DNA of 64,000 bases from NCBI GenBank assembly GCA_028030915.1, contig GCA_028030915.1_4867.1; one strand, written 5' to 3'. A program made the position numbers and the translations under genes. The stretch's first letter is position 1. Every line of letters begins with the position of its first letter. The notes under the pieces are model-generated. The model saw only the letters and a list, made by a program, of their open reading frames with translations, was not told the DNA's origin and did not search any database. Of the stretch, positions 39,180 to 55,899 are shown piece by piece. This stretch comes from a phage.

Positions 39180-39191
39180 GGAGATTTTTGA

Positions 39192-42100
39192 ATGAAAACG
39201 TATCCTTACGATCCTCGGGGTGTAAATCCTGAGTGTCACTTCATCGAGGAACGTATCATCGACTCCGACAATCCTAACGATCGGGTGGTGATGCTAGATC
39301 ATCGCCCGTTTTTCGAAGGATTGGTGGTAAGGCTCGCCGGCTCGTCCATACCGCTTACCCGCGGGACGGACTATGAGCTGGAGTATGCTTTAACACCGTT
39401 GGACGACTCGGTGACGACCCCGGTGTTTTGCGGGGTGCATCTTATTAACCCTAAACTGCGTGGTGCGGTGGTCTTTGAAGGCCAGATGCTCGGGGGTACG
39501 TTTTACAGTGGTTTGATTGAGATGTTGGATGAGCTAATTAAGGCACTCAACAATCCAACGGCTGCAGATTGGCTGCTTTTAGGTAATCGACCTTCCCTGT
39601 ACCCAGCCACCCCTGCAGCGGTAGCTTGGTCAGACATGCTGAATAAAAAGTATGTTGCCTCTGCAGTGCATGATGTGGAGTTAGATGCCGGGGCGGCCAA
39701 CGAGCAGATTCGTGAAAAGCTTACTGAGCTGAAAGATGCGGTTTTGGGCTTAGGAACTGAAATCGCCACATTTAACTACCCCGGACACATTGCGTCGACT
39801 AACCCTCATGGGACTACCGCGGCGCAGGCCGGTGCGCATCCTGTCAACCTGAAAACGCCAGATACTTTCCTGGCGTATGGAAAGACGTTGCGTCAGTTAA
39901 CCAGCGAGGTCCGTGCACTGGGTCTGCAACAATCGGATATCGACAAGTACATTTCTAAATGGGTATCGAAAGAATCCAGAGGGGTGTTTAATGCGACGAT
40001 ATCCGGTACTCGTGCCCTGTTCCGTTCTCCTGCTGGTGAATCCGAAATTGTGTTCTCTGCTGAGGCATTCACTCTTAAATCTAATGGCTCTGTTGTGTTG
40101 GCGTGTGGGTATGCCGACACTACTGGAACCGTCCGGTTTATGGAGTGGAAAGCAGGCATCAATACATTACGTATTGAGTCGACTGGCAGTGCCTTGGGGA
40201 TGGATAAGCTGACGCTTAATGGTACGACGTTACTGACCACAACCGCTCTCATGGGCTATCAACAAGACCCTGGTACCGGCGGTGGTACCGTTGACCCGGA
40301 TGACAACAAACTGTACATTAGCGGGGTGAACGGCATTACTTTCACGGGTAAAGGGTCAAAAGCCGATCCTGTCACCGGGAAGGTCACAGCCAAACCCGCG
40401 ACGACCTCTGAACCAGGCGTTGTGACGCTGACTGATAAGCCGAGCGATGTAGTCAAAGGGCAAGCAGCCACCCCGTCGGCGCTTTTGCCGTATGAGGGCG
40501 ACCTGTCTTCGTACGTCAGGAAGACAACGCTGCTGAATAACCAGCCGATGAACACTGGTAGTCGAACGCTGACGAAAAAGGATTTGGGTTTAGACTTGGC
40601 TGATAACACAGCCGACGTCGATAAACCACTTTCTGACGCGTTGGCAGAAGCAGTTACCGGTCTTAGCGATAAAGGCCATCATCACAACTTCGCTGATTTA
40701 CAGATCCCAACGGCTTCTCAAACTGTGCCAGGCATCGCGCGATACTCTACCAACTTAAACGGCTTGGCGGATAATCGTGGCGTTACCCCGAACGTTCTGA
40801 ACGAATTGTCAAAACGTTTAGACGTGGTTGCAGCCGCGTTAGCAAACGCGAAAGAGGATTCCGTGGCCGACTTCGCCGCTGTGCGTGGTAAGACATGGAC
40901 TGTGGGGTCTACGCGTACTACCCTCGCTGTAACAGATTTGAACTATTTCTATCTGTTAAATGGTACACGTAAAGAGGGGACGGTATCCGGCTCGATAGAC
41001 CTGCAAACCACACCGATGTTCCAGTGGTTCTCTCCGGATAACCGTATGGAAAGAACGTGGCAAAACGCGGTAATTAATACCGGTGCCGGTATTGATTTTA
41101 GTGGGTTCGAGGTTGCTGTCCCGGAAACAAACTACGGTGCGCAGATTGGTTTAACGACAACCGGAATGGGTGATTTGTCAGTCGTTAACCTCTTGGCGAA
41201 AACGTGGGTTCGTTGCGACTCTGGTAAGCTGCGGATTTGGGTTCGTGGCGGTGGTGCTGTTTCTGTTTATCTGGACGGTGAAATTATCGGTGCGGGTATT
41301 ACAGAAGCGGGGTATCTGGAGGCGACTGTCAAAGAGGGGTGGAAGCAACACTGCTTAGCATTCCGTGCAGAATGTAACGATAGCGCTAAAGCAGCCGCAA
41401 TTCGTTTCACAATTTACGACGGTGACTTTGCGGTTGGGGCCTCGGATAAAAACACCAAAGTTGCCCGCCTGCAGGAGTTTGTTAAGACGCCGAACGGTTT
41501 AAGGCATTACCTCTATGTGAACATGATAACCGATGCGTTATATTCGCGCGCCGAACCTATTGTGGACACGGAAGGTATTAACTTGGAACGCGGCTATATC
41601 GGCCACATTGATGTCCCTGACGCGGGATTGGTTGCAGGCACGACTTACGAGTTTGAAACGACGTTTGATTTTGGCATGGCGTCCGAACTTAAACGGCACT
41701 TCGAAACACGTCTAGCACACGGGGTGAGTAACACCGACTGGTCGTTGACGGATAACCCGAAAATGCTGCCGTTGAATAAGGTTGATCCATTACCTAAACA
41801 ATGGCTGTATGCGTATCCAACTAACCCGTCTGTTTCTGGGGATAACCTCGTTCGTTTAGATCGTGGGTTATTTGATTATAAATTCGTAAGTGCCACCTCG
41901 CTCAGGATTCTTCTTGCGGCGGTTGTTTCCACTGAAAACGCGTCCCCGTATTGCTGGTTTACACCAAGCAACCCGAAAGAAAATGGAATGGCGACATTCG
42001 AGGGTTCGGTGGTAATCGACACTGATTATCCTGAAGTCCCAAAAACCTCGGACGTCGAAGTTTCATTAAACTTCATGGCCCCTTCTGCTGATGGGAAAGG

Positions 42101-43322
42101 TAAAACCAGAGTCCTGCGGTGGAGTAACTCCCGCACCAGTTTAAACTGCGGCTTTATTGCTGCGCCGTACGATAAACCAACCGGAAGAATTGCCACCACA
42201 CAATCCAGCGTTACTAATACGCTGGTTGATGCTCCTCGTGTAATCAAGAGCGTGGATGTTCAGTCGCCTGACTGTTTAGACTATCTCCCGGTTTCAATCG
42301 CTAGCGAGTTCGCAGCCATTGGTTCGCGCTGGCTTATTCGTTATCGCTATATTGTTGATACGCAGATACTGCGAATATCGTCGATTAGTAAGATAGGCGG
42401 CCAGGCTTCGGCGACTGTTCGTGAGATAGAGTACGACATTCCGTTTGACGCGATTGATTATTTTAAAGGCGGCGCTTTATCGATTAGTGTTACTGGCATC
42501 GAAACTGGTGAAGGCGTCACAATCAACCACGGTTTGATGGACCCTTCCACAACAGAAGTAGATTTAAATCGTTTCCATTATCTACGCTCGCTATTTGAGT
42601 CGTATATTGAGCGTTCTCCGGACAGCCAGTCTTCTGGGCATGAGGAGATGTCGATATCAACCGTCGCGTTCGCGAACTTTGGAGATAACGTCGATAACCC
42701 GGTTACGGAATACATCACGATGTCTGCTGCAAGTGAGGGTTATCCGGAACTTGCACCGAACGGTAAACTCCCCGCACCGTTTTACAAAGGGCTGCAGAAA
42801 CGTGGTGCTCCGCTACTTGAGTCGGCTCCTGCAGACTATACGTCTAACGGTGGTGAATGGAAGTACGGCTTTATGCGGGCTTATCGCCCAACTCAAAATG
42901 AGCGTTTTGTGTCGGTAAATGGGACAATGCTCTCTAACTACCCAGGATATATCATCGTGGGTAGTGAGAAAATTCCGGGTAATGTTATACCTTTCAGTGC
43001 ATCGACAACAGCTGTTCAGATATCTGGGACTCTTGCCCGCACGAAACCGATGCAGCCAATTCACATCGTGTTCGTGCCTCCGGAAGGTTCTGTGCCGCCG
43101 CTGCAAGCGAAGTTCACTATTAATGGCGTGGGCAGTAGTGGTAATCCGATGTTCGTGATTACTGAAACGACACCGGTGGAACTTCGCACTGGTGGCGAGA
43201 CGATTCTCATTGAGAAGCGTAATCCATTCCATATCCCCACCAGGACATGGGATTGGATTTTACAAACGTTGGATACTGAACGTAGAAACGAAGGCAACAA
43301 CTCGGGTGAGTGGGCCTCTTAG
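39192..43322 (+). CDS. tail fiber protein (1376 aa)
   Basis: AAGGAG RBS; GHHHNFADLQIPTASQTVPGIARYST fiber motif; shared N-terminal domain (PFFEGLVVRL...GTDYELEY). Confidence 0.7.
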   Translation: MKTYPYDPRGVNPECHFIEERIIDSDNPNDRVVMLDHRPFFEGLVVRLAGSSIPLTRGTDYELEYALTPLDDSVTTPVFCGVHLINPKLRGAVVFEGQMLGGTFYSGLIEMLDELIKALNNPTAADWLLLGNRPSLYPATPAAVAWSDMLNKKYVASAVHDVELDAGAANEQIREKLTELKDAVLGLGTEIATFNYPGHIASTNPHGTTAAQAGAHPVNLKTPDTFLAYGKTLRQLTSEVRALGLQQSDIDKYISKWVSKESRGVFNATISGTRALFRSPAGESEIVFSAEAFTLKSNGSVVLACGYADTTGTVRFMEWKAGINTLRIESTGSALGMDKLTLNGTTLLTTTALMGYQQDPGTGGGTVDPDDNKLYISGVNGITFTGKGSKADPVTGKVTAKPATTSEPGVVTLTDKPSDVVKGQAATPSALLPYEGDLSSYVRKTTLLNNQPMNTGSRTLTKKDLGLDLADNTADVDKPLSDALAEAVTGLSDKGHHHNFADLQIPTASQTVPGIARYSTNLNGLADNRGVTPNVLNELSKRLDVVAAALANAKEDSVADFAAVRGKTWTVGSTRTTLAVTDLNYFYLLNGTRKEGTVSGSIDLQTTPMFQWFSPDNRMERTWQNAVINTGAGIDFSGFEVAVPETNYGAQIGLTTTGMGDLSVVNLLAKTWVRCDSGKLRIWVRGGGAVSVYLDGEIIGAGITEAGYLEATVKEGWKQHCLAFRAECNDSAKAAAIRFTIYDGDFAVGASDKNTKVARLQEFVKTPNGLRHYLYVNMITDALYSRAEPIVDTEGINLERGYIGHIDVPDAGLVAGTTYEFETTFDFGMASELKRHFETRLAHGVSNTDWSLTDNPKMLPLNKVDPLPKQWLYAYPTNPSVSGDNLVRLDRGLFDYKFVSATSLRILLAAVVSTENASPYCWFTPSNPKENGMATFEGSVVIDTDYPEVPKTSDVEVSLNFMAPSADGKGKTRVLRWSNSRTSLNCGFIAAPYDKPTGRIATTQSSVTNTLVDAPRVIKSVDVQSPDCLDYLPVSIASEFAAIGSRWLIRYRYIVDTQILRISSISKIGGQASATVREIEYDIPFDAIDYFKGGALSISVTGIETGEGVTINHGLMDPSTTEVDLNRFHYLRSLFESYIERSPDSQSSGHEEMSISTVAFANFGDNVDNPVTEYITMSAASEGYPELAPNGKLPAPFYKGLQKRGAPLLESAPADYTSNGGEWKYGFMRAYRPTQNERFVSVNGTMLSNYPGYIIVGSEKIPGNVIPFSASTTAVQISGTLARTKPMQPIHIVFVPPEGSVPPLQAKFTINGVGSSGNPMFVITETTPVELRTGGETILIEKRNPFHIPTRTWDWILQTLDTERRNEGNNSGEWAS

Positions 43323-43357
43323 GACGGACTGCCTACGGGCGGGTAGTCCGTAGGTAA

Positions 43358-43397
43358 ACCGCCCTTCCGTTATTGGGAGGGCGGTCTCCGTTTTATT
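43358..43397 (+). terminator. intrinsic terminator/attenuator between fiber genes (ACCGCCCT...AGGGCGGT, then T-run)
   Basis: Inverted repeat followed by CTCCGTTTTATT; preceded by a second hairpin at about 43323-43354. Confidence 0.45.
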
Positions 43398-43417
43398 ACA
43401 GATTAGGAGTGTTTGCA

Positions 43418-46400
43418 ATGCCGAGAGAAGATGCGGCGCAGTTTAACGGTACCCTCAGTACCGCTACTTACCCGAACCGTTATTCGACGGTCATTCCCGT
43501 CGAAGCACCGTTCTATCGCATCGGGTTAACGTTAACCGTTACCGATAAAGCAACCGGAACCAAACGCAAGTTAATAGAAGGTCTTGATTATTTCTTAGGA
43601 CATTACTTCCAGGAATTAGCCGAGGCTGAGAACGATGCAATATACGGCAGCATAATGCTGCTGAACGCCACAGAGGTAGAATACGAGTTGTTGTCGGTTG
43701 GTCGACAGTATCGCATCCCTGCTTCTGAAATCGGCAAGTATCTGGTTAAGACGGATATGAAAGACCCGCGCAACTGCGATTGGTCTGAGCTGATGAAATA
43801 TCCACCGATTATCTCGCCAATCGACCCGCCAAAAGATCTCGAAGAAGCGATTCTTCGCGATGAAATCGTAAAGGCGTTGGAAGATATCCGTCTGGGTATT
43901 TTAGAGCGCGCCCACGAACTGGATGAGGCATTTGCCGAAGTTACCGATTTGATTTATCAGAACGGTAAGCAGGTGTTTGATGACGAAATGTATCAACACC
44001 ACCTGATTAAAAATGCACATGGTTACACCTGCGGTGACATTGGCGCACTCCCTGTGCTCGGTAAGGCCGTAGATGCGACTAAGGCATTCGGACGTACCCT
44101 GGCAGAGCTAGTGACGTTAATGTCTACCAGTGGCATCCAACAGAAACACGTTGACCTGCTTCTGGATAATACCCTGGGTGATTTACTGGGCCGTATGCGT
44201 GTTCTGAATAACGACGCGATTACGTTCCAAACAACGTCTGGTCACGTTATCAGCATGAAAGGTGAGAAGTTCATCATCACCTCGACAAAACCGCTGGTAT
44301 TAAAAGCTGACCAGGATAACAACGAACCGGGTATCGCTACGGAGTTCAGTGCTGGTCTGAACACGCTTTGGGTTCACTCGGGTAAAGCAGGTGACAAGTG
44401 GGGCGCTTATGATGCAGGTGTGCTTGCACCTGTGTATAACAGCGTGTATCTCGTTACACCGGATATGGTTAAGATGTACTTGACCTCGGTGAAGATACTT
44501 CCAGCAAACGCCTACTTCAAGTCCAGCGACACGTTGAAGATTTACGGCTCTGGTAAAGAAACAAACAAAGTTTACATGAATGCGGAGCTGCCTGCAGCAA
44601 CCACAACTGTGCAGGGTTTGTTTGCGATTACTAACCTCTCGGCATCCGCTGCAGCGTCCACAGCGATTTCCCAAAAAGCTGTTACTGACTTGAAGAACAA
44701 ACTCGACGGATATGTGGACGACACGTATACGGTCAATGGTAAAGGGTTTGTATTAGATTCAAACGGGCAGATGCATCTGACCTTAACCGCGGCAGATTTC
44801 GGTATTGAGAAAATGGACAATACCGGACCGTTAGAAAAGCCTGTTACTAACGCATTGCGTACCGTGCTATCAGGCAAAGCGTTTACATCGCACACCCACA
44901 CCATTGCAGATCTCGATAACGTGCCGTACGCATCCACGTCTGTTACAGGTTTGGCTAAACTGTGGGATGCAATCGACACTACCTCGGATAAGATGGTCAC
45001 TTCGCGCCAAGGCTTCTTGCTTGAACAGAAGATTGACACGCTGAATGACAAGATTGGTACGTTATTACCGGCGTGGACTGTCGGCGGATCATCGTACGGC
45101 AACAATAACTTCTTGCCTATACCAGTCCAGGGGAACTACGAAGGGTATACCAAAAACCAAACCTGGCAGAAAGGTTTGGCGCGTTACGAGTCTGGTAAGG
45201 TTTACTCGCTCCGTAATGGTTCTAACGGGAATCCACCTGGTGACTGGGCTATCTATTACGCTTACGCAGATGTAGCCGCGGATAACACGCTGACGAACAT
45301 GCAGCAGACGTCCGTACGTTACCGCCCCGCTGGAATGTCGGCGTATCCTGGGGTGAATCTGGTTGCTATTGTGATTACCGGTACAGATGCAATGATCTGC
45401 TTAGGCAGTGACGGTGCGTATTACCTGGTCATCTTTGACGGCACCATTGACCATGCAAAACATCATCGTGTTGTTAAAGTTCAGTTGGGCGATTACCGAA
45501 ATGGTAACGCGGCCGGTGTGATTACAACCGCTCCATGGGTTGCCGATCCATCAACAAACGATTTGATCGTTTGCAACGAGCGGGTTTATCTGCTCCGTAC
45601 TGTCCTTACCTCCGGTGACTATTTCGTGAGTATGCGTAGCATCGCACTTGACGAACTTAATCTGGGTGGTAGCAACACGTTTGTGGCGGATGTGTTAACA
45701 GGCGGGATGTTAACGTCGGGAGATAATATCTATTTGCGTCAGGGTCAGAAACGTTCTGATACAGATGTGTTGGTAGCGCCAGTAACACAAATCTACGCAG
45801 ACGCATCGGCGAAGTGGAATAGTGCGCGAAATTTCGTCCATGGTCCGGAATGTAATCACGCGATTGGTGTGGATGGGCTGAACTTTCGTGTTGGTTTAAC
45901 TCCAACGGTTTGGTTTGCTTCTACTACAGGGCAAACTATTAACTTTAAACAATGGGTGTCAAGCTTTGTTGTTGATTGTAGTTCAATGACGATAACGCTG
46001 GAAGGTGCTGATCGATTCCCTATTGTGGCCGATCTTACCACGGTTCGTTATAACGGTGGTGCTGAGATTGGGATTCCGAGCCGGAAATGGGGCGAAGGTC
46101 AAGCTAATAACCGAACCTTTGCAACATCGCAAGACAAGTATATCGTTTCGCAAGGACATGCAGGCGATCGCGACCTGATGCCTTACGTCACGATTACCAC
46201 GTTAGATGACGGTGTGAGTTGGTACGAGTACCTGTCGTGCGACTACAACTTCACTGCCAGAAGTTTTAGTGCGGTAATGTTAAACCAAGGTCGTGGTTCT
46301 ATCTACGAGCTGGGTATGGCGTATCCGCTGACTCTGGGAGCGAATTCCAGACTTATCTGGTTGTCACAGCCGCGTACCCGTTTGGCAATTGAAGTTGAGT

Positions 46401-48601
46401 TTGATCCGAACACCACTTACTCAGGTAAGGCGGGGTACGGCCCAACTAACAATCGTCGTGTGGTGGATTCTACCACGTACGAGAATCTGTCGCAGATGTG
46501 CCACATTGTTACACCGGCGTCGCCTGGTACAGAGTTAAACGGCTGGTATTGCACAGGACCAGAAACATTCCCTTACCACAACGTTTCTGGCACTTTCACG
46601 ATTCATGCCGATCGGTTGACGCTGTCACAAGCTGAATGGGATAAGATGAAGCAGATGATCATCGACGGAGCACCGGCAGGCGCTGCGAATGGTTATGCTT
46701 CGGAATTTATCCTTGCCGCAAATAACGCAGGAAAGGCATTGTTCTCCGTTTGGTTCATCGGCATTGGTACGGCCACACCGCTCACGTTAGCACAAGTAGC
46801 ATGTACGCGTACTGTGAACAACGTTAACGTGTTGGATATCTACTACTTTACACTGAAACCAACAATCAGCAACGGGCAGGTAACATTCCCGGCAGCGATA
46901 TTGGCATTGTTTGACTTCTATAACAACCTCGACTATGGCTTGAACTATGCTACGTTGGGTGAGATAACGGGAGGAAAAACACGCCGGCCGGGACAACCTA
47001 CACTGGTGTCAGTAGATGGTACTCAGTTCGGGTTGTATCTTCCACACACGTTAACCTTGCGCCAAATTGGCGACTTGGGTGCGCTTAACTACGGCGTTGG
47101 TCTTACGCTGTCTAATGGTACCTGGACGCGTTCTTCTGCTCCACACGGCATTGGACGCATGGCACCATCACACACTCCAGTCAGCCCAGCTTATCTGGCT
47201 CATCGTGATCAGGTGATGCTACACAACTCATCTCTCGACTACGTCTATTGTGGTGGTATCGCAATGTCGTCGAGTGATTTTGTCGCGGCTCCTAATTTTA
47301 GTGGCCCGACTGAATCGGTCGTCATTGCTGGTGTGGAAACAGCCGAAGGTTGGCTGGTATATGTGACTGAGGAAGTTGACCTGCGTTTCGGCTCGAGCAC
47401 TTATAAACTGCCTACGTGGTATATTGACCTCAGCGCAGCATTTCCAACAAACCATCAGAACCGGACATTCTACCTGCACGCCAAGGTAGAAAATGGTACA
47501 CCGAAGTACGTAATGGACGTGATTCAACATCCAGACACTGAAACGGAACTCTATATCGGGTATGTTAAAACGGGCTCGTCGCGAGTCGTCGAGACTAACG
47601 TCGAACATGCTAAGCGATTAGGGGCGGTGAAACAACTGTTGGAACATGCGGCGGTTGAGAATAAGCATGATGTGGAGGTGGGAAGGGATGCAGCAACGGG
47701 CAGACTGGCACCATTGCGTAAAGAAGCGATGGGTCCTTTGTCGATCGATGCTACGAAAGGCTATCTGGATAGTCAGTTGCTTTATACCGTATCTGACGCA
47801 CAGCGTCGCGGTAAAGCGATGGTCTCCAAACGTTTCGAAGGCTTGAAAACTTTGCCGGCGTTTACTCAGGCAAACAAGTCGGGGGCGTTTTGGAAACATC
47901 CTACAACAATTGCGACGGTAACGGCCGATGAGAACGGTGAAGCGGCATCGTTGGGAATGGAGTGGGTAGGTATTCCAACGCCCGCTTTCTCACCGACCTC
48001 AACGAACTTGATGGTGGTGGTGCAAAGTAAATTCGTCGTCCCAGGTACACCGGGAGTAGAAACGACCTTTAATGTCCACGTTGCCCCATGGGAGGCGGTG
48101 GATGGCTTTTTCTACAACGTCGAGGCGGAAGGTACGGATGTTAACATTGACGAAAATCCAGAAGTGTTATTGCCGTCACCACATACCGTGCACCACAAAC
48201 AGCACTCTCTGCCAGCAGGCGTGCCGTGCACCTTTACATTTGTCGCGGCGGTAAGTTCTTCAGCGCTCGAAACAGCCAACCAGCATATTTGCTCTTGGCT
48301 TTTCACGGAAGCGGGGGGACTACCAATCACCACCGATCTTTCGGATAGTAAGATTCAAATCTTACCACAGCCGGGAGAAACCTATGGCACTCCAGTTGTT
48401 CTGAACAGTCGTAGCTATACGTTTACGAATGTGGCAGGTGCAATCCCGGTTGTTACCACGGGCGCTCAGGGTTTATTCCCACCACCGATCGTGGCGTGGG
48501 ATGGCGATGATCTTACGTTAACGATTGCGCACGATTGGGTGAACGAGAGAGGACGTCAGCAGCCTGATATTATCCAGGTCAATCTTATGTTCCGTACCTA
48601 A
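43418..48601 (+). CDS. tail fiber protein (1728 aa from the ATG with AGGAG RBS)
   Basis: FTSHTHTIADLDNVPYASTSVTGLAKL fiber motif; shared N-terminal domain (APFYRIGLTLTV...GLDYFLGHY); the track ORF begins upstream at 43373 inside the terminator hairpin. Confidence 0.7.
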   Translation: MPREDAAQFNGTLSTATYPNRYSTVIPVEAPFYRIGLTLTVTDKATGTKRKLIEGLDYFLGHYFQELAEAENDAIYGSIMLLNATEVEYELLSVGRQYRIPASEIGKYLVKTDMKDPRNCDWSELMKYPPIISPIDPPKDLEEAILRDEIVKALEDIRLGILERAHELDEAFAEVTDLIYQNGKQVFDDEMYQHHLIKNAHGYTCGDIGALPVLGKAVDATKAFGRTLAELVTLMSTSGIQQKHVDLLLDNTLGDLLGRMRVLNNDAITFQTTSGHVISMKGEKFIITSTKPLVLKADQDNNEPGIATEFSAGLNTLWVHSGKAGDKWGAYDAGVLAPVYNSVYLVTPDMVKMYLTSVKILPANAYFKSSDTLKIYGSGKETNKVYMNAELPAATTTVQGLFAITNLSASAAASTAISQKAVTDLKNKLDGYVDDTYTVNGKGFVLDSNGQMHLTLTAADFGIEKMDNTGPLEKPVTNALRTVLSGKAFTSHTHTIADLDNVPYASTSVTGLAKLWDAIDTTSDKMVTSRQGFLLEQKIDTLNDKIGTLLPAWTVGGSSYGNNNFLPIPVQGNYEGYTKNQTWQKGLARYESGKVYSLRNGSNGNPPGDWAIYYAYADVAADNTLTNMQQTSVRYRPAGMSAYPGVNLVAIVITGTDAMICLGSDGAYYLVIFDGTIDHAKHHRVVKVQLGDYRNGNAAGVITTAPWVADPSTNDLIVCNERVYLLRTVLTSGDYFVSMRSIALDELNLGGSNTFVADVLTGGMLTSGDNIYLRQGQKRSDTDVLVAPVTQIYADASAKWNSARNFVHGPECNHAIGVDGLNFRVGLTPTVWFASTTGQTINFKQWVSSFVVDCSSMTITLEGADRFPIVADLTTVRYNGGAEIGIPSRKWGEGQANNRTFATSQDKYIVSQGHAGDRDLMPYVTITTLDDGVSWYEYLSCDYNFTARSFSAVMLNQGRGSIYELGMAYPLTLGANSRLIWLSQPRTRLAIEVEFDPNTTYSGKAGYGPTNNRRVVDSTTYENLSQMCHIVTPASPGTELNGWYCTGPETFPYHNVSGTFTIHADRLTLSQAEWDKMKQMIIDGAPAGAANGYASEFILAANNAGKALFSVWFIGIGTATPLTLAQVACTRTVNNVNVLDIYYFTLKPTISNGQVTFPAAILALFDFYNNLDYGLNYATLGEITGGKTRRPGQPTLVSVDGTQFGLYLPHTLTLRQIGDLGALNYGVGLTLSNGTWTRSSAPHGIGRMAPSHTPVSPAYLAHRDQVMLHNSSLDYVYCGGIAMSSSDFVAAPNFSGPTESVVIAGVETAEGWLVYVTEEVDLRFGSSTYKLPTWYIDLSAAFPTNHQNRTFYLHAKVENGTPKYVMDVIQHPDTETELYIGYVKTGSSRVVETNVEHAKRLGAVKQLLEHAAVENKHDVEVGRDAATGRLAPLRKEAMGPLSIDATKGYLDSQLLYTVSDAQRRGKAMVSKRFEGLKTLPAFTQANKSGAFWKHPTTIATVTADENGEAASLGMEWVGIPTPAFSPTSTNLMVVVQSKFVVPGTPGVETTFNVHVAPWEAVDGFFYNVEAEGTDVNIDENPEVLLPSPHTVHHKQHSLPAGVPCTFTFVAAVSSSALETANQHICSWLFTEAGGLPITTDLSDSKIQILPQPGETYGTPVVLNSRSYTFTNVAGAIPVVTTGAQGLFPPPIVAWDGDDLTLTIAHDWVNERGRQQPDIIQVNLMFRT

Positions 48602-49851: not shown

Positions 49852-49860
49852 CTTGTTTAC

Positions 49861-49905
49861 GAGCCGGACTATGTTTATGGACATAGTCCGCTCGTTCTAC
49901 TTTTT
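49861..49905 (+). terminator. intrinsic terminator/attenuator (CGGACTATGT...ACATAGTCCG, then T-run)
   Basis: 10-bp inverted repeat followed by CTACTTTTT, between the last fiber gene and the Cys-rich peptide genes. Confidence 0.45.
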
Positions 49906-49916
49906 AAGGAAGCGTA

Positions 49917-50309
49917 ATGGCGATATCTATTAAAGACGTCAGAAACCGCGTCCAGATAGTCGAAGCTAACATGGCGACAGGCCCCCGCATCGAGGCGCAA
50001 GTGGCCTCTAAAGCCCATAATGCGGCAGACCGATTTGGGGGTTGGACGAAAGCACAGCTAGATTGCGGCGGGACATGTTCTTGGACATGCTCTAACGGTT
50101 GCTCGCACGGCTGTTCGAGCTGTTCAGGAAGCTGTTCTGCTTCTTGTATCGGTAGCTGTTCTTCGACGTGTGGCGGTAACTGTTCTGGTTGCTCTGGTTG
50201 TTCTGGTGGTTGCAGTAGTAGCTGTACCGGTAACTGCACAGGTGGTTGCGGTGGCTCATGTTCTTCCAGTTGTTCCGGGGCCTGCTCCGGCGGCTGTTCA
50301 GGTCGCTAA
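49917..50309 (+). CDS. Cys-rich repeat protein A (130 aa): ~49-aa leader-like N-terminus plus a CxxxC repeat tail with about 21 Cys; candidate RiPP precursor
   Basis: ATG with AAGGA RBS; N-terminus MAISIKDVRNRV is paralogous to the next two ORFs; tail DCGGTCSWTCSNGCSHGCSSCSGSC...CSGACSGGCSGR. Confidence 0.6.
   Translation: MAISIKDVRNRVQIVEANMATGPRIEAQVASKAHNAADRFGGWTKAQLDCGGTCSWTCSNGCSHGCSSCSGSCSASCIGSCSSTCGGNCSGCSGCSGGCSSSCTGNCTGGCGGSCSSSCSGACSGGCSGR
50064..50306 (+). repeat. in-frame period-12-nt coding repeat (Cys-Ser/Gly-x-x) within protein A
   Basis: Reiterated TGC/TGT-containing units (e.g. tgttctggttgctctggttgttctggtggttgc); both alternative frames are also open, as expected for a low-complexity repeat. 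Confidence 0.6.
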
Positions 50310-50319
50310 GGGGGATTAA

Positions 50320-50724
50320 ATGGCAATTGGATTAAAAGAACTGAATAACCGATTAAACACGATCGATGCAAACGCTCTAAAGAATACCACGAATGTGCAA
50401 AACTACATTCGCAATAAAGCTACGAATAACGCTGACTTGTTCGCAGGTCAAGGTCGTTCGCACTACGACTGTGGTGGTACGTGTTCTTTTAGCTGCTCAA
50501 GTTGCTCTGGCGGCTGCACAGGATCTGCGACAGGTGGTTGTGGGTCGACTTGTTCGGCAAACTGTGTATCAGGCTGTAGCAGCAGCTGCACGGGCTGTAG
50601 CTCTTCGTGCTCTGGTGGTTGTAGCGGCACGTGCACAGGCAGCTGTTCTGGGGGTTGTGGTAAATCCTGCTCCGCAAACTGCTCAGGTGCGTGCTCTGGT
50701 GGTTGTTCAGGTCCTAACTCCTAA
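50320..50724 (+). CDS. Cys-rich repeat protein B (134 aa): leader-like N-terminus plus a CxxxC repeat tail with about 20 Cys; candidate RiPP precursor
   Basis: ATG with GGGGGA RBS; MAIGLKELNNRL leader paralogous to A; tail begins YDCGGTCSFSC and ends CSGACSGGCSGPNS. Confidence 0.6.
   Translation: MAIGLKELNNRLNTIDANALKNTTNVQNYIRNKATNNADLFAGQGRSHYDCGGTCSFSCSSCSGGCTGSATGGCGSTCSANCVSGCSSSCTGCSSSCSGGCSGTCTGSCSGGCGKSCSANCSGACSGGCSGPNS
50470..50721 (+). repeat. in-frame period-12-nt coding repeat (Cys-Ser/Gly-x-x) within protein B
   Basis: Same repeat style as in A; alternative frames open. Confidence 0.6.
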
Positions 50725-50739
50725 CTGACGGAGGCTTAT

Positions 50740-50946
50740 GTGATCAGTCTCAAGACTATTCGAAACCGTCTCGTTACGGCAGAAGGTTACATTACAACCG
50801 CACAGGCAAACAACTATATCGCTAACCAGGGCACCGTGTCGACCACAAATAACCTGGCTGGCTTACCGCTTTCTCACTATAACTGTAATGGTGGGTGTAG
50901 CTGGTCCTGCAGCGGAAGCTGTAGCCGTGGAGCGGGGAATCGATAA
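50740..50946 (+). CDS. Cys-rich short paralog C (68 aa, GTG start): leader-like N-terminus plus a short CNGGCSWSCSGSCS core
   Basis: GGAGG RBS 5 nt before GTG; MISLKTIRNRL leader matches A and B; core starts YNCNGGCSW, like the start of the A and B cores. Confidence 0.5.
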   Translation: MISLKTIRNRLVTAEGYITTAQANNYIANQGTVSTTNNLAGLPLSHYNCNGGCSWSCSGSCSRGAGNR

Positions 50947-50968
50947 CAGAAAACGTTCGGAGTATTAA

Positions 50969-51856
50969 ATGAAAAACGATTTGCATCTTGCGTATAAAAC
51001 CACATTCAACCACCCGCTGCATCTATCTTCCCCAGATTCAGTGCGTGCACACCTTGCTGACAAAGTCAGACTGATTGCACAGATTCCTGGTGAGTGGCCA
51101 AAGGTTCGTGGTCGCTTCTTGACCGACAAGAAGAACTACACCGTAGAAAATACGTTTAAGATCCGTGATATGGTTGCAGAGGCCATCGTTATCTTTAACG
51201 GCGATGGTAACTCTCGTGGCGTGTTAGTCGACGGTAAGTATTTCTTCAGTGAAGGGATTTTGAACAACAGCGTCGATTTAGAACTGATGTTTACACCGTT
51301 TGACGAACTTGAAGCAAAACCGATGGCGCGCCGTTGGTGGAGTCCGGACTATCTGGGCTCGTTCCCTTACTACTTTGTACTGGTACCTGCCGATACGGAA
51401 ACGTATTTCGACACCGAACCATACATCGATATCGAGGGGTATAAAGAACTCGGCATCACCCGTTTAGCGGACATGATGGCGTATAGCTATAAGTTCGTGT
51501 GGGATAAAAAGCGTTCTGTCTGGTATGCACTGACTGACGATTTCGAAATCACCAAACGTATTCGTAAACCGTGGATGCAACATCTGGTTCAAACCCGATA
51601 TGGGGATTATCCGGCGACGGAAGCGGATTTGAGTAAGCTGGTAAGTTTCCTCTTAACGAAGGTGGATTTAACGAAAGAAGAAGCAGAAGCTGTTTCTGAG
51701 ATTCGTGGTCGTTCGGTAACGTTGGCCGATTTGAAACGCCTGAACGAAAGACACGCCGACCTGAACAAAATTTTAGCTGCCTATCACGACCCGATGTTAC
51801 TGGTGCCCGGCGCTAATGTAGACGAAGATCCTTTATTCGCCATTGATTATATTTAA
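50969..51856 (+). CDS. hypothetical protein (295 aa) within the Cys-peptide/radical-SAM cluster
   Basis: GGAG RBS; no recognised motif; lies between the precursors and the rSAM genes. Confidence 0.5.
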   Translation: MKNDLHLAYKTTFNHPLHLSSPDSVRAHLADKVRLIAQIPGEWPKVRGRFLTDKKNYTVENTFKIRDMVAEAIVIFNGDGNSRGVLVDGKYFFSEGILNNSVDLELMFTPFDELEAKPMARRWWSPDYLGSFPYYFVLVPADTETYFDTEPYIDIEGYKELGITRLADMMAYSYKFVWDKKRSVWYALTDDFEITKRIRKPWMQHLVQTRYGDYPATEADLSKLVSFLLTKVDLTKEEAEAVSEIRGRSVTLADLKRLNERHADLNKILAAYHDPMLLVPGANVDEDPLFAIDYI

Positions 51857-51878
51857 AAATATACTGGAGCAACCTGCA

Positions 51879-52793
51879 ATGACAGATCAAGTAGAATCCA
51901 GGATCTCGTCTGAACTGTACGACAAACCGTCAATTCTGTCGGTTGTCGCAACTTCTAAGTGTAACTTAGACTGTAGCTTCTGTGGAGGGGCTTATTACAT
52001 GGATAGAGAAGATACTTCTCGTGAGTTTCAACGTGAAGAGATTCTCTCGATTTTAGAGAAGAATCCGGATATCGGTGAGATTCATTGGACGGGCGGTGAG
52101 CCGCTGTTAGCGCAGCGCAAGATTGAAGACTTCGTGAACGAGTTGAAGGAGTCTCATCCGAACCTCCGTCATCACATGTACACCAACGGTTTAAAGATGC
52201 GTAAATCACATCTGCCGTTGCTGAAACAGTTCGACCTTATCTTTGTGTCCATTGACGGCTACAAGAAGTCGGAACGTCCGTTTATGAACTTTGTAAACGG
52301 TGGTAATCATGAAGCGCTGGAAGTGCTGTACGAGCTGGACAACTATTACACCTGGGGTGTGATGACGCGTGACCAGTTAGGTGATAAACGCTGGTACGAA
52401 GATTTCATCGAGCTGCACCGAGCAATCTATCATTACCGTCCAGGTGGGATGTCGTTGCTGTTTGATGCGATGATGCCGAAACCGTTATCGCCAGACCACG
52501 TCATGAACTTCATGTACGGGTATTGGAAAATACTCGACAATATCGAACGCCTTAACATGCAGAACGATTCTGAATGTGGGCTTGCGATCAGTAAAATGTT
52601 CGATACCGAGTGCAACACGTGCAGTGAAGTTCTGTGGCTTAACGCCGACGGTACGCAGGAGCAAATTCAGAACGCCCCAGAGATATTGGAAGTCGGCTGT
52701 AATCGCCTGGCGCGTTCTATCGGCGTTGATGCGTATAACTACATCAACCGTGTAATTTCTGCTAAGCGTAAACGGGCGGCGAACAATGAGTAA
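51879..52793 (+). CDS. radical SAM enzyme (about 305 aa) with short Cys-containing C-terminal extension
   Basis: CNLDCSFC (C-x3-C-x2-C) near the N-terminus, WTGGEPLL, YTNG, SIDG; C-terminal ECGLAISKMFDTECNTCSEV...GC; GGAG RBS before the ATG at 51879 (the track ORF starts at an upstream TTG). Confidence 0.7.
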   Translation: MTDQVESRISSELYDKPSILSVVATSKCNLDCSFCGGAYYMDREDTSREFQREEILSILEKNPDIGEIHWTGGEPLLAQRKIEDFVNELKESHPNLRHHMYTNGLKMRKSHLPLLKQFDLIFVSIDGYKKSERPFMNFVNGGNHEALEVLYELDNYYTWGVMTRDQLGDKRWYEDFIELHRAIYHYRPGGMSLLFDAMMPKPLSPDHVMNFMYGYWKILDNIERLNMQNDSECGLAISKMFDTECNTCSEVLWLNADGTQEQIQNAPEILEVGCNRLARSIGVDAYNYINRVISAKRKRAANNE

Positions 52794-54114
52794 CAGCGAA
52801 CAGCAAATCCAGTACACACCACGCACATATCAGGTCGTGACTAACTTGTCATGTAACCTGGACTGCGAATACTGCTACGAGCGTAAATACCCACGCAACA
52901 ACAAAGTAGCTGACGTGATTGATTTTATCCACGCTTGCTTCGAGCGTGATAAAGATATCCCGAACGTTGAAGTCATCATCGATATCATCGGTGGTGAGCC
53001 GTTCATGCAGCCTAAACTTCTTTTGGCGGCCTTTGAAACCGCAGAGAAGTTATGTGCAGAACACAATCGCCCGTATATGTTCAGTATCTCCACGAACGGT
53101 ACGCTTCTGGACCGTCCGCTGAACAAAGAAATTATCGAGCGCTGGAAAGACAAACTGTCTATTGGGGTCTCCATCGATGGTTTACCTGAAATCCATGACA
53201 AATATCGTATCTTTACCACGACGCGTGAAGGGTCGTACGAAGCTGCGGTACGCGGTTACAATTACCTGAAGAGTGTTGGCATCGCTGAGCTGGGCGTAAA
53301 GGCGACGTTTACGATCGATACATTGCCGCACTATGCCGCCAGCATGAAATCGTTAATTGACATGTCCGGCGGTGGTACCATTTCTGGTAACGTAACGTAC
53401 GAAGATATCCTGCCGCGCCATATGGCGTTGGATATCGCGAACCAGATGATGGACGTGATGGACTACTGGATTGAGAAGGGTCTGCACACCAACCCGCGTA
53501 ACACGATTACGCACATCATCCCGGATGGCCTGAACTTTATGGCAACTTGGGACCCGGATTGGCGTGACAAACTCTTACATGACGACTCTGTTCGTCTCGA
53601 CCCAGAACGCCTGAAACCGTACTGCGGTACGTTGACGCACATGACCTGTCTCGGCTTTGATCGCAAGATTTACGGTTGTAACCGTTTCATGTCCACGGTA
53701 ACTTCCCGTTCTGCTGTAGCAGAACTGGTCGGTCGTGAGTTTGTGAGCCTGGACGGTGGTAAGCTGTTAGAAGAGATTCAAACGCAGTACACCAACTACC
53801 CAGAAACCTGTTTAGGGTGTCCGATGAAACACAGCTGCGGTAGCTGCGCAGCAGCATCGTACGAAAACGGTGAAGGTACACTGGAAGACCGTAAAGCGTA
53901 TCACGCCGAGCGTCGTCAGTGTGGTTGGACTACTGCGAAGCTGATGGCGGCGGAATATTGGTATCAGAAAACTGGTACGACCCGCGCATCAGATTTGCAC
54001 GATAAATCCATGTGCTATTGTTCACGTTGTGTACGCCAACGTGCTGAAGCAGAAAAATTACAAAACGGAGCCCAGAATGAAGTCAATACTGATTCACAAT
54101 TTTACGAAGCGTAA
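52786..54114 (+). CDS. radical SAM enzyme with SPASM-like Cys-rich C-terminal domain (442 aa)
   Basis: CNLDCEYC (C-x3-C-x2-C), GGEPF, STNG, SIDG; C-terminal cysteine cluster CGTLTHMTCLGFDRKIYGCNRF...CLGCPMKHSCGSCAAASY; start overlaps the upstream rSAM stop by 8 nt. Confidence 0.75.
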   Translation: MSNSEQQIQYTPRTYQVVTNLSCNLDCEYCYERKYPRNNKVADVIDFIHACFERDKDIPNVEVIIDIIGGEPFMQPKLLLAAFETAEKLCAEHNRPYMFSISTNGTLLDRPLNKEIIERWKDKLSIGVSIDGLPEIHDKYRIFTTTREGSYEAAVRGYNYLKSVGIAELGVKATFTIDTLPHYAASMKSLIDMSGGGTISGNVTYEDILPRHMALDIANQMMDVMDYWIEKGLHTNPRNTITHIIPDGLNFMATWDPDWRDKLLHDDSVRLDPERLKPYCGTLTHMTCLGFDRKIYGCNRFMSTVTSRSAVAELVGREFVSLDGGKLLEEIQTQYTNYPETCLGCPMKHSCGSCAAASYENGEGTLEDRKAYHAERRQCGWTTAKLMAAEYWYQKTGTTRASDLHDKSMCYCSRCVRQRAEAEKLQNGAQNEVNTDSQFYEA

Positions 54115-54643
54115 ACTGCACTTGGTCGATCGCTTCCTGCGCAAAAGCAAGCTGTACAATGTGCACGCAATTGTGGCAGGGGAAGACTTCACTGATGAAA
54201 TCCAAAGCCTGTTGATTAAATACGGGCTGAATGTGATGATCCCGGTCTACTGCGTTGAGAAAGGACACGAGTCTGTCGCGGAAATCGAAAAGCGCAACCC
54301 TGGCTTTGAGAAGCGACTGCTTGCATACCCACGCCACAAAATCGAACTGCTACGACACTCTATTGATGAAGCCAGTCCTGAAAGTTTAGTGGCATTGGGC
54401 TTGTCTTTCCCGCGGATGCGTATTCGTAACTTACGCTCCAATAACCCGGTTGACGCTTATTACACAGAGCGTCAAATCTTCGAAGAACACCTGCTCCCGC
54501 AGTTGGAAGAAGAAGAGCAACACAACATTTCTCTGTTGTGGGCCGGTAACCTCGATCAGGACTTCCAGATGCTGGACTTCGGTTTGTTGTTAGAACTTGG
54601 CCTGATTGAGGAGGACGAATGTCTGTTACTGACAAAAGCTTAA
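54077..54643 (+). CDS. hypothetical protein (188 aa from the internal Met with GGAG RBS)
   Basis: The track ORF starts at 54029 inside the rSAM gene; the Met at 54077 has an RBS but still overlaps the rSAM 3' end by 38 nt. Confidence 0.4.
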   Translation: MKSILIHNFTKRKLHLVDRFLRKSKLYNVHAIVAGEDFTDEIQSLLIKYGLNVMIPVYCVEKGHESVAEIEKRNPGFEKRLLAYPRHKIELLRHSIDEASPESLVALGLSFPRMRIRNLRSNNPVDAYYTERQIFEEHLLPQLEEEEQHNISLLWAGNLDQDFQMLDFGLLLELGLIEEDECLLLTKA

Positions 54644-55290
54644 CGAACGAAGAGATCCGCGCCCGTTATTTCCAGCGTGATTTGCCGATTGATCGTCACG
54701 GTAATTTCATGGAACGAATCGGTGCGCAGGATCAGGGCCGTACCGGATTTTGTGCATTACTCCATTACCATCTCATCGAAGGGATGTCTGATAAAGAAGC
54801 CCTGGCACGCATGAAGCTGTATGAGATGTCGGAGATTGAAGCTAACTTCACATTGAAACGCACGAAAGAGTTTATTGCTAATGTGCTGGAGATTGACCTC
54901 GACGAAATTCGCGGGAATCTGAAATCTACCGCACGTTACATTTACGAAGACGTGCAGAAGATGCTGTTGGAACTCGACCACCGCTACGAAGATGAGCGCC
55001 ATGGTTATATCGAGTTTGAAGGTAGTCACTTTCAAGCCGATGAATCGTCGCGTACCATCCTCGGTCAATACATTCAGGCAGATACCGCACCAGAATACTG
55101 GCTCGATACGCTGAATACTAAGCACAGTCCGTTTACAGTAGCCCAATGTAAAGCGTTGCTGGCCGCTATTGTTGCACGTGACCAAGTGTTGCACTCAGCA
55201 ATGGCAGATAACAAACGCCAAATCCGTGAGTTAGCTGAAAAGCGCGATTACACTGGATTAAAAACATTGTCCGAGTCACTCGGCATGTAA
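54619..55290 (+). CDS. hypothetical protein (223 aa), last gene of the cluster
   Basis: ORF overlapping the previous gene by 25 nt; followed by a strong terminator. Confidence 0.5.
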   Translation: MSVTDKSLTNEEIRARYFQRDLPIDRHGNFMERIGAQDQGRTGFCALLHYHLIEGMSDKEALARMKLYEMSEIEANFTLKRTKEFIANVLEIDLDEIRGNLKSTARYIYEDVQKMLLELDHRYEDERHGYIEFEGSHFQADESSRTILGQYIQADTAPEYWLDTLNTKHSPFTVAQCKALLAAIVARDQVLHSAMADNKRQIRELAEKRDYTGLKTLSESLGM

Positions 55291-55302: not shown

Positions 55303-55348
55303 AAGGCCCTACCTCCCCGAAGGGAGGTAGGTACCTTTTATTTATTTC
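55303..55348. terminator. bidirectional intrinsic terminator (CCCTACCTCCC-CGAA-GGGAGGTAGG, then T-run)
   Basis: Inverted repeat between convergent genes 54619..55290 (+) and 55372..55899 (-). Confidence 0.6.
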
Positions 55349-55371: not shown

Positions 55372-55899
55372 TTAAACGAATCCGTCCAGTTCACCGTTGG
55401 TGGTGCTCAGGTCAGTTTTAACGATTGGCTGCGTTACAGTATAAACTGCAAGGCTGGCAGGTTGGTATTTAATGTGGCCTTCTTTCACCATAACAGTGAT
55501 GATTTTCTCACCACTGTCGCCGTCCTCGCGTGAAATGGTGAGTTCAGACAATGCAAACGCATCTTCCGTTTTACCGGCGGCAATTAGATCTGCGTTGACA
55601 AAAGCAAGCACTTCTTCATCGGTATCCCATTCTGCCTGGTCAGCGGTAACTGCTTTCGCACCGATGATGTTCAATGAATCGAGGCGGGTGTAATGCAGCT
55701 CTTTCTCGCCAGTAAAGTTAGCGGATTCCGCGGTGGCAGTGATGGTGAGTTTGGAGTTGCGAGTGTCTCCAGAATCTGCTGGTGAATAGTCAGCAACAGC
55801 GCCGAATGTAACGTCAGCAGTAGTTAACGGACTAGACAGTCCGCTGTTTGCAGCATTAAACAGCGCGACGAGTTGGTCTTTTGCAGAGATGACTGCCAT
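55372..55899 (-). CDS. hypothetical protein (175 aa), Thr/Ala-rich, possibly virion-associated
   Basis: ORF in track. Confidence 0.45.
   Translation of the reverse strand: MAVISAKDQLVALFNAANSGLSSPLTTADVTFGAVADYSPADSGDTRNSKLTITATAESANFTGEKELHYTRLDSLNIIGAKAVTADQAEWDTDEEVLAFVNADLIAAGKTEDAFALSELTISREDGDSGEKIITVMVKEGHIKYQPASLAVYTVTQPIVKTDLSTTNGELDGFV

Follow-up and report, generated by a model that had tools for sequence, protein, structure and literature searches.

A radical-SAM gene unit beside the tail genes of an SPN3US-like jumbo phage and its possible role in tail-fiber maturation

Organization of the gene unit

The window of phage DNA analyzed here (64 kb of contig GCA_028030915.1_4867.1) holds, at positions 49917-55290, a unit that combines three small cysteine (Cys)-repeat or repeat-related proteins, P1 to P3, with two radical S-adenosylmethionine (SAM) enzymes, and the function of this unit is the subject of the present study. 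The region is 98 to 99% identical, in reversed orientation, to Salmonella phage SPN3US and its relatives, a group of 240-kb jumbo myoviruses in the genus Seoulvirus. The unit corresponds to SPN3US gp161 to gp166 plus two open reading frames (ORFs) that are unannotated in the reference. A preliminary description of this DNA had proposed eight co-oriented genes bracketed by terminators, and all of these features are present where it had placed them:

49859-49905, + strand: upstream intrinsic terminator, a 16-bp bulged stem followed by a T-run; folding energy -23.7 kcal/mol
49917-50309, + strand: P1, 130 amino acids (aa), 21 Cys; unannotated in the SPN3US reference
50320-50724, + strand: P2, 134 aa, 20 Cys, a paralog of P1; overlaps the misframed SPN3US gp166
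50740-50946, + strand: P3, 68 aa, 4 Cys, GTG start, a short paralog; unannotated in SPN3US
50969-51856, + strand: gp165 homolog, 295 aa; fourth of the conserved module components
51879-52793, + strand: gp164 homolog, radical-SAM protein (PF04055), 304 aa from ATG 51879 (alternative start TTG 51843)
52786-54114, + strand: gp163 homolog, radical-SAM/SPASM protein, 442 aa; matches to PF04055, TIGR04115 and PapB
54077-54643, + strand: gp162 homolog, 188 aa (alternative start GTG 54029); PHROG 7988
54619-55290, + strand: gp161 homolog, 223 aa, with a C-terminal DUF4376 (PF14301); PHROG 2837, "tail protein"
55308-55345, both strands: downstream bidirectional terminator shared with the convergent gp160; folding energy -23.6 kcal/mol

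The two flanking hairpins have folding energies of about -23.7 kcal/mol, each with a T-run behind it, and a consensus scan also called the downstream terminator as bidirectional, at 55308-55331. A clear Shine-Dalgarno-like purine run precedes seven of the eight starts (AAGGAAG, AAGGGGGA, ACGGAGG, CGGAG, CTGGAGC, ACGGAGC and GAGGAGGA); that of gp163 is weak, and the gp163 start overlaps the end of gp164.

The Cys-repeat proteins

Cysteine makes up 16% of P1 and 15% of P2, compared to 1.0% in the other long ORFs of the window, and 33 of the 39 Cys-Cys intervals in the two proteins are exactly three residues long. Such a run of Cys is found nowhere else among the 293 ORFs of at least 50 aa in the window. 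P1, P2 and P3 share an architecture in which the N-terminal domain, short and helical (about 50 aa; about 49 in P1), is followed by a junction, CxGxCS(W/F)xCS, which in its fuller form reads NAxxLxG....YxCxGxCSW and in P1 is CGGTCSWTCS. Past the junction, P1 and P2 run on as about 20 units of C-[ST]-G-[STG] in which Asp and Glu are nearly absent, while P3 retains the N-terminal domain and the CxGxCSW junction and has nearly lost the repeat; in Derbicusvirus and Wellingtonvirus only 2 to 3 Cys are left in P3. The preliminary description of three paralogous small ORFs with conserved N termini thus holds, and its Cys-rich cores exist in P1 and P2 and not in P3, which has four Cys in all.

An obvious objection is that these ORFs are not translated, and it is answered by the selection acting on them. 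When five phages from four genera (Seoulvirus, Machinavirus, Derbicusvirus and Wellingtonvirus) were compared in codon alignments guided by the proteins, substitutions at codon positions 1, 2 and 3 numbered 436, 328 and 787 for P1, 421, 340 and 844 for P2, and 232, 203 and 461 for P3, and the Cys columns were invariant. The third-position excess in the Cys frame together with the invariant Cys indicates purifying selection and identifies the Cys frame as the coding frame, and P1 to P3 are real, selected genes. All three also match PHROG 6085 (E values of 1e-40, 3e-41 and 3e-24, respectively), and the ORF in the alternative (+1) frame of P2 had no PHROG match. On the codon-position evidence and the absence of a family match, we reject the Val/Ala-rich frame annotated as SPN3US gp166 (50393-50728, +1 of P2). 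In the SPN3US reference (JN641803 / NC_027402), gp166 is therefore misframed, and P1 and P3 are missing; in CR5, Kwan and Phobos, ORFs on the opposite strand are annotated over the Cys genes, and the annotation of Machina uses the Cys frame. Predicted N-terminal tryptic peptides of the corrected small proteins include VQIVEANMATGPR, IEAQVASK and LNTIDANALK.

The triad of P1, P2 and P3 is present in 14 of 14 jumbo-clade loci in IMG/VR, and none of them departs from 21 Cys in P1. Against TIGR04114, a family of radical-SAM targets, P1, P2 and P3 scored 19.6, 17.1 and 13.7 bits, respectively, with a cutoff of 20. PF27846 gave no match to P1 to P3 in the Pfam copy used and did match a relative of P2 with 58% identity (P0174). 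A sequence search of the PDB with P1 returned nothing meaningful. A profile of the N terminus and junction of P1 to P3, run against 1.84 billion representative sequences, retrieved 30 proteins, mostly short members of the clade, with two fiber-like proteins (P0194 and P0195) and two spurious repeat proteins, and the N-terminal domain thus offered no clue to function. One relative, P0173 (210 aa), has a P3-like junction, CNGSCSWACSGSCS, followed by an extra β-rich domain of about 140 aa, and resembles a short fiber with a knob at its distal end.

The radical-SAM enzymes

Both enzymes of the preliminary description, one of them with a SPASM-like Cys cluster, were borne out. PF04055 was matched above its cutoff of 29.5 bits by gp164 (58.6 bits; E = 1e-15) and by gp163 (56.2 bits). 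In an alignment of 23 gp163 homologs, down to 32% identity, the CX3CX2C motif is near-invariant at C23/C27/C30, and seven C-terminal Cys are invariant (C280/C298/C342/C345/C351/C354/C379). SPASM domains, which bind two auxiliary 4Fe-4S clusters, are recognized by the pattern C...G...C, CX2CX5CX2-3C, C, and the seven-Cys motif leads us to assign gp163 to the SPASM enzymes and to predict two auxiliary clusters; the Pfam SPASM hidden Markov model (HMM), PF13186, had no match to gp163 at E ≤ 0.1, so that the assignment rests on the motif.

The best NCBIfam match of gp163 is TIGR04115, a family of radical-SAM peptide maturases with CXXX-repeat targets (125.5 bits, E = 3e-36, below the cutoff of 350), and the second is the PapB family NF047865 (113.8 bits, E = 1e-32, residues 22 to 357, below the cutoff of 340). 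The further matches are other peptide or protein maturases, including the SCIFF maturase and the QhpD family, and among solved structures the best sequence match is CteB (5wgg), followed by anSME (4k37). From these scores, gp163 is a sister of the TIGR04115 and PapB families and not a member of either.

The second enzyme, gp164, has five conserved Cys in the family alignment, at positions 28/32/35/245/274, that is, CX3CX2C and two more in the C-terminal part. Its family matches are confined to the radical-SAM core, and it is not a full SPASM enzyme. The start annotated for gp164 in SPN3US (264 aa, at about 51999) lies downstream of CX3CX2C, and starting at ATG 51879 (304 aa) restores the motif.

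The possibility that these are nucleotide- or cofactor-modifying enzymes had been raised as an objection. An identity as QueE, NrdG or MoaA was rejected for gp163, which instead aligns over nearly its full length to peptide maturases, its nearest families being TIGR04115, PapB and CteB. For gp164 the matches to QueE, NrdG and MoaA are weak and limited to the N-terminal core, and its pairing and natural fusion with gp163 argue against such an identity. The sequence relationships support the view that the two enzymes would modify a peptide or protein and not a nucleotide or cofactor. The fusion occurs in viral locus L034 (7137-9197), where one protein of 686 aa has CX3CX2C at residues 23 and 299, and this supports the idea of two enzymes working together. 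In a jumbo relative, L025 (4126-6127), there is an extra gp164 paralog, and the gene order is P1, gp164', P2, P3, gp165, gp164, gp163.

The module in other phages and prophages

Distant gp163 homologs, with 32 to 39% identity, occur in unrelated phages and prophages, and a scan of IMG/VR found relatives of gp163 in at least 486 viral contigs. We analyzed 80 IMG/VR loci with a gp163 relative and sorted them with HMMs of the module components into two types. In 74 of the 80, a co-oriented ORF with Cys repeats lies beside the gp163 relative.

Type A (23 loci, in addition to five found before) consists of a Cys-repeat protein, a gp165-like protein, a gp164-like radical-SAM enzyme and a gp163-like radical-SAM enzyme. 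The gp165-like and gp163-like components are present in all 23 loci and a separate gp164-like gene in 22, with L034 carrying the fusion; the gp165-like proteins were recognized with BLAST E values down to 3e-12. In Type B (55 loci), the only enzyme belongs to TIGR04115 proper (428 to 497 bits), gp164 and gp165 are absent, and the targets are proteins of 280 to 570 aa with 40 to 105 Cys in CXXX repeats (up to 105 Cys in 500 aa). Type B loci are found among L036 to L092 (for example, L042 5807-7249, L080 3932-5434 and L054 5878-7578), and their targets have an N-terminal domain of about 110 aa with the motif ...LK..V..E..RR. The L054 targets have a minor tail protein and a virion protein as neighbors.

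Outside the jumbo clade, the Type A repeat is found on fibers. The 384-aa Cys-repeat protein of L028 matches PHROGs of tail-collar fibers at 1e-55, and the genes there are ordered baseplate wedge, tail protein, fiber, gp165-like, radical SAM, radical SAM, small ORF, tail sheath. The module thereby occupies what we take to be the slot of the P2 gpG fiber chaperone (P2 gene map J-I-H-G-FI). L035 has the same type of layout with a collagen-like fiber, and the N terminus of the L034 Cys-repeat protein matches tail-fiber PHROGs at 3e-32. L007, a Deferribacter prophage, and L010 have fibers with HxH...DxRYYTE repeats after a GpJ-like tail protein, and L008 has a fiber-like protein of 568 aa with a PF27846 match after a homolog of the T4 neck protein gp13.

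These fibers share with P1 to P3 the junction NAxxLxGQ....YYRCxGCSW(T/S)C. PHROG 6085 matches the C-terminal segments of the fibers in L007, L008, L034 and L035 with E values of 3e-7 to 3e-14 and those in L010, L029 and L033 more weakly, at about 1e-6 to 1e-5. On this homology, the Cys repeat outside the jumbo clade forms the C terminus of genuine tail fibers. P1 to P3 themselves match only PHROG 6085, to which no function is assigned, so that the likeness is to a fiber domain and not to a whole fiber. The common junction and the PHROG 6085 matches to fiber ends make P1 to P3 look like a detached distal portion of a fiber.

Two loci, L032 (6883-7176) and L012 (5889-6221), have putative targets of only 97 and 110 aa in front of complete gp165/radical-SAM/radical-SAM modules, with 3 to 8 Cys at the extreme C terminus only (e.g., ...GCESCAMGCHGPQ), which indicates that a long repeat is not required. 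In the prophage locus L010 (5306-8134), three radical-SAM genes (274, 301 and 377 aa) lie one after another; after them come a second tail-fiber gene (574 aa) and a small protein for which Pfam gave a thrombospondin-type (TSP1) match.

Partner and neighboring genes

The gp165 homolog has a fold without known relatives, and phmmer matches to gp162 are limited to the 14 jumbo-clade loci. The preliminary description listed the last two genes as unknowns, which is still the case for gp162 and no longer for gp161, in which DUF4376 is recognized over residues 121 to 205 at 38.8 bits, above the cutoff of 25. DUF4376 is the C-terminal domain of experimentally demonstrated tail-fiber chaperones, gp27 of Alteromonas phage V22 and gp9 of Alteromonas phage A5 (PMC7289586, PMC10579305), the only two of its proteins with a known chaperone function, and by analogy gp161 is probably a conventional fiber chaperone. 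A DUF4376 protein also lies beside the module in L012. Searches with phmmer for homologs of gp162, gp161 and gp167 in the Type A loci outside the jumbo clade found none.

Upstream, the unit adjoins virion tail proteins, in agreement with its earlier placement inside a phage structural module:

35466-48601, + strand: giant baseplate/tail-fiber candidates gp170, gp169 and gp168, in a long block of + strand genes that has the eight-gene unit at its end
43373-48601, + strand: gp168 homolog, 1,742 aa, virion tail protein and baseplate/tail-fiber candidate (PMC5105663, PMC5694885)
48613-49851, + strand: gp167 homolog, a coiled-coil virion protein of 412 aa directly upstream of the unit

In SPN3US, gp167 to gp170 were all detected in purified virions, and gp168 to gp170 were labeled baseplate/tail-fiber candidates (PMC5694885; PMC5105663). 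gp167 was found at 70% sequence coverage and was not marked as a head protein (PMC5694885 Supplementary Table 1). On the other side, the gp160 homolog (55372-55899, - strand), a head-protein gene, is convergent with the unit. SPN3US gp160 is among the most abundant head proteins, a member of paralog family B with 89% coverage in virion mass spectrometry (PMC5694885); the main text of that paper puts "161" in family B, while its Supplementary Table puts 160 there.

Tail-fiber maturation and alternative explanations

We propose that the eight genes form a tail-fiber accessory unit that matures a fiber-type protein enzymatically and are not a natural-product cluster, a reading to which we give a probability of roughly 0.6. 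The adjacency of a Cys-repeat ORF and the enzyme in 74 of 80 viral loci makes P1 to P3 almost certainly the substrates of the radical-SAM enzymes, as far as gene linkage can tell. In the proposed mechanism, gp163 and gp164 would act on the Cys-repeat domain of P1 to P3 in the cytoplasm of the infected cell, with gp165 helping them, perhaps by presenting or chaperoning the substrate. The chemistry would most likely be a ladder of Cys-derived thioether cross-links, since the nearest characterized enzymes, PapB, CteB and QhpD, make Cys thioethers. Such cross-links could make the Gly/Ser-rich tail rigid and resistant to proteases, a rod or tip whose length is fixed, and the invariant 21 Cys of P1 are consistent with a rod of this kind. 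gp161 would act as a conventional fiber chaperone, and the matured proteins would join the fiber apparatus of gp167 to gp170. They might do so as a P1/P2/P3 heterotrimer, given that homotrimers would be expected of the fused versions.

Three separate small proteins may now make up the cross-linked part in the SPN3US group, as a heterotrimeric tip. More tentatively, many tailed phages (jumbo, P2-like, lambda-like and T4-like) could covalently cross-link the distal end of the fiber by radical-SAM enzymes in place of the usual chaperone, a generalization that we hold to be possible rather than probable.

Several points weigh against the proposal. A terminator parts the unit from gp167. The repeats do not have the Asp/Glu acceptors of PapB and QhpD substrates, making the type of bond uncertain. 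The modification of P1 to P3, the type of bond and the incorporation into the virion are inferred from sequence. The N-terminal domain appears to be nearly restricted to the clade, and a docking role for it is a guess. The matches of PHROG 6085 to the fibers may be partly inflated by composition. An AlphaFold2 model of P2 from a shallow alignment reached a mean predicted local distance difference test (pLDDT) score of 41.6 and gave no confident fold. Finally, the SPN3US virion proteome lists none of gp161 to gp166 (PMC5694885). This absence says nothing about P1 to P3, because their correct sequences were missing or misframed in the annotation that was searched, and for gp161 to gp165 it fits enzymes and chaperones.

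The same absence of gp161 to gp166 from the virion list is compatible with a role of the modified Cys-repeat proteins as assembly factors, a transient scaffold, template or cap for the folding or trimerization of gp168 to gp170 and gp167 that is then discarded. Their place in a fiber operon beside a DUF4376 protein would suit such a role, and transient fiber caps have a precedent in an Alteromonas phage (PMC10579305). In other phages, however, the repeat is covalently part of the fiber polypeptide and would need to be cleaved off, and no domain of autoproteolytic chaperones, Peptidase_S74 for example, was detected. We therefore regard a discarded assembly factor as rather unlikely.

The preliminary description had read the unit as a cluster of the type that makes ribosomally synthesized and posttranslationally modified peptides (RiPPs). 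In its classical form, this would mean that P1 to P3 are leader/core precursors, that the core is cross-linked and the leader cut by a host or unidentified protease, and that a toxin, signal or effector is freed at lysis. Parts of this picture stand: the several paralogous putative precursors have conserved N termini and repetitive cores, gp163 is nearest to the RiPP maturases TIGR04115, PapB and the SCIFF maturase, and P1 comes close to the cutoff of the TIGR04114 "radical SAM target" family (19.6 versus 20 bits). The other parts of a RiPP cluster were not found: there was no RiPP recognition element (RRE; PqqD-like) in the maturase or a partner protein, and Pfam, NCBIfam and PHROGs gave no peptidase or transporter family, and hence no exporter, among the eight products. 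Moreover, the "leader" holds the tail-fiber junction motif and the whole leader-core unit is fused to fiber C termini elsewhere, the module sits in the fiber-chaperone position of P2-like prophages, and gp161 is of the fiber-chaperone type. That P1 keeps 21 Cys from genus to genus also fits a structural constraint on length better than a bioactive peptide. Among the roles first suggested for the product, a cross-linked peptide that decorates the fibers is thus the closest to the evidence, while a free natural-product peptide is not supported, and we consider a classical RiPP cluster unlikely.

Metal or redox binding, in which the CXXX repeats would bind metal or Fe-S like metallothioneins or the His-iron sites of fiber tips while the radical-SAM enzymes act elsewhere or insert or repair clusters, would suit the very high Cys content with small neighboring residues and the metal sites of trimeric fibers (the HxH sites of T4 gp37), but it is very improbable given that, across lineages, the repeat occurs in tight association with a SPASM maturase most closely related to enzymes for peptides that contain Cys, and that the two enzymes are naturally fused beside their target in L034, and a pure metal-binding role leaves the linkage to the enzymes unexplained.

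Novelty and significance

A search of the literature found no experimental description of the CXXX-repeat/TIGR04115 family and none of radical-SAM maturation of phage fibers, and the earlier statement that no characterized phage system of this architecture is known agrees with this. What is already known is that the genes have been deposited as "radical SAM" or "hypothetical" and that the pairing of CXXX repeats with radical-SAM enzymes exists as an in silico family. What is probably new is SPASM-type peptide or protein maturation in an unrecognized role in structural virology.

Tail fibers decide the host range of phages, and their maturation is held to rely on folding chaperones and autoproteolysis. 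If our proposal is true, radical-based covalent maturation would be a new principle in phage assembly, SPASM enzymes would gain a new class of protein substrate, and a structural protein of the virion would be acted on by radical-SAM chemistry. It would also give a biological role to the uncharacterized and widespread family of gp163 relatives. Much of the canonical CXXX-repeat RiPP family may be carried by phages and have a structural role, and TIGR04114/TIGR04115 would then belong largely to phage structural biology and not to natural-product biosynthesis. Engineering of host range with phage or tailocin fibers that have a Cys-repeat domain would need the enzymes to be transferred along with the fiber. 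Radical-SAM enzymes need reduced Fe-S clusters, and the redox state of the infected cell could therefore control fiber maturation and, through it, infectivity or host range. With its amber mutants and deep proteomics, SPN3US offers a genetic model in which the question can be tested directly.

Comparison with known systems

One close likeness is to the CXXX-repeat system (TIGR04115 with TIGR04114/PF27846), which also has a radical-SAM/SPASM enzyme beside proteins with a Cys at every fourth residue. Its true members among the viral contigs, however, form the separate Type B with one enzyme and targets of 40 to 105 Cys, and gp163 scores 125 bits against the 350 required. PapB with PapA (freyrasin) and CteB with SCIFF are likewise SPASM radical-SAM enzymes that make thioethers from repeated Cys motifs. 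The PapB substrate is of the CX3(D/E) type, whereas the phage repeats have no Asp/Glu acceptor, and the phage module differs further in its obligatory second radical-SAM enzyme and gp165, its fiber-related substrates and its place in a structural operon. That SPASM enzymes can act on folded or large proteins instead of exported peptides has precedents in anSME and QhpD (acting on the QhpC subunit), although their motifs and chemistry are different (formylglycine and Cys-Asp/Glu cross-links, respectively) and they have no link to virions.

On the structural side, P1 to P3 resemble the adhesins of the T2/S16 gp38 type, which are small separate proteins that attach through an N-terminal domain and carry a repetitive, Gly-rich distal domain at the tip of the fiber (PMC9942802). 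The adhesins have neither Cys repeats nor dedicated enzymes and no detected sequence similarity, so that the likeness is an analogy only. The fiber chaperones (P2 gpG/Tfa, T4 gp38/gp57A and V22 gp27) are encoded directly downstream of the fiber gene and are needed for its distal end, and the module lies in that slot in the P2-like loci L028 and L035, while gp161 in the present unit has DUF4376. The known chaperones fold or cap the fiber noncovalently, whereas the slot here holds two radical enzymes, for which we propose a covalent modification of the fiber end.

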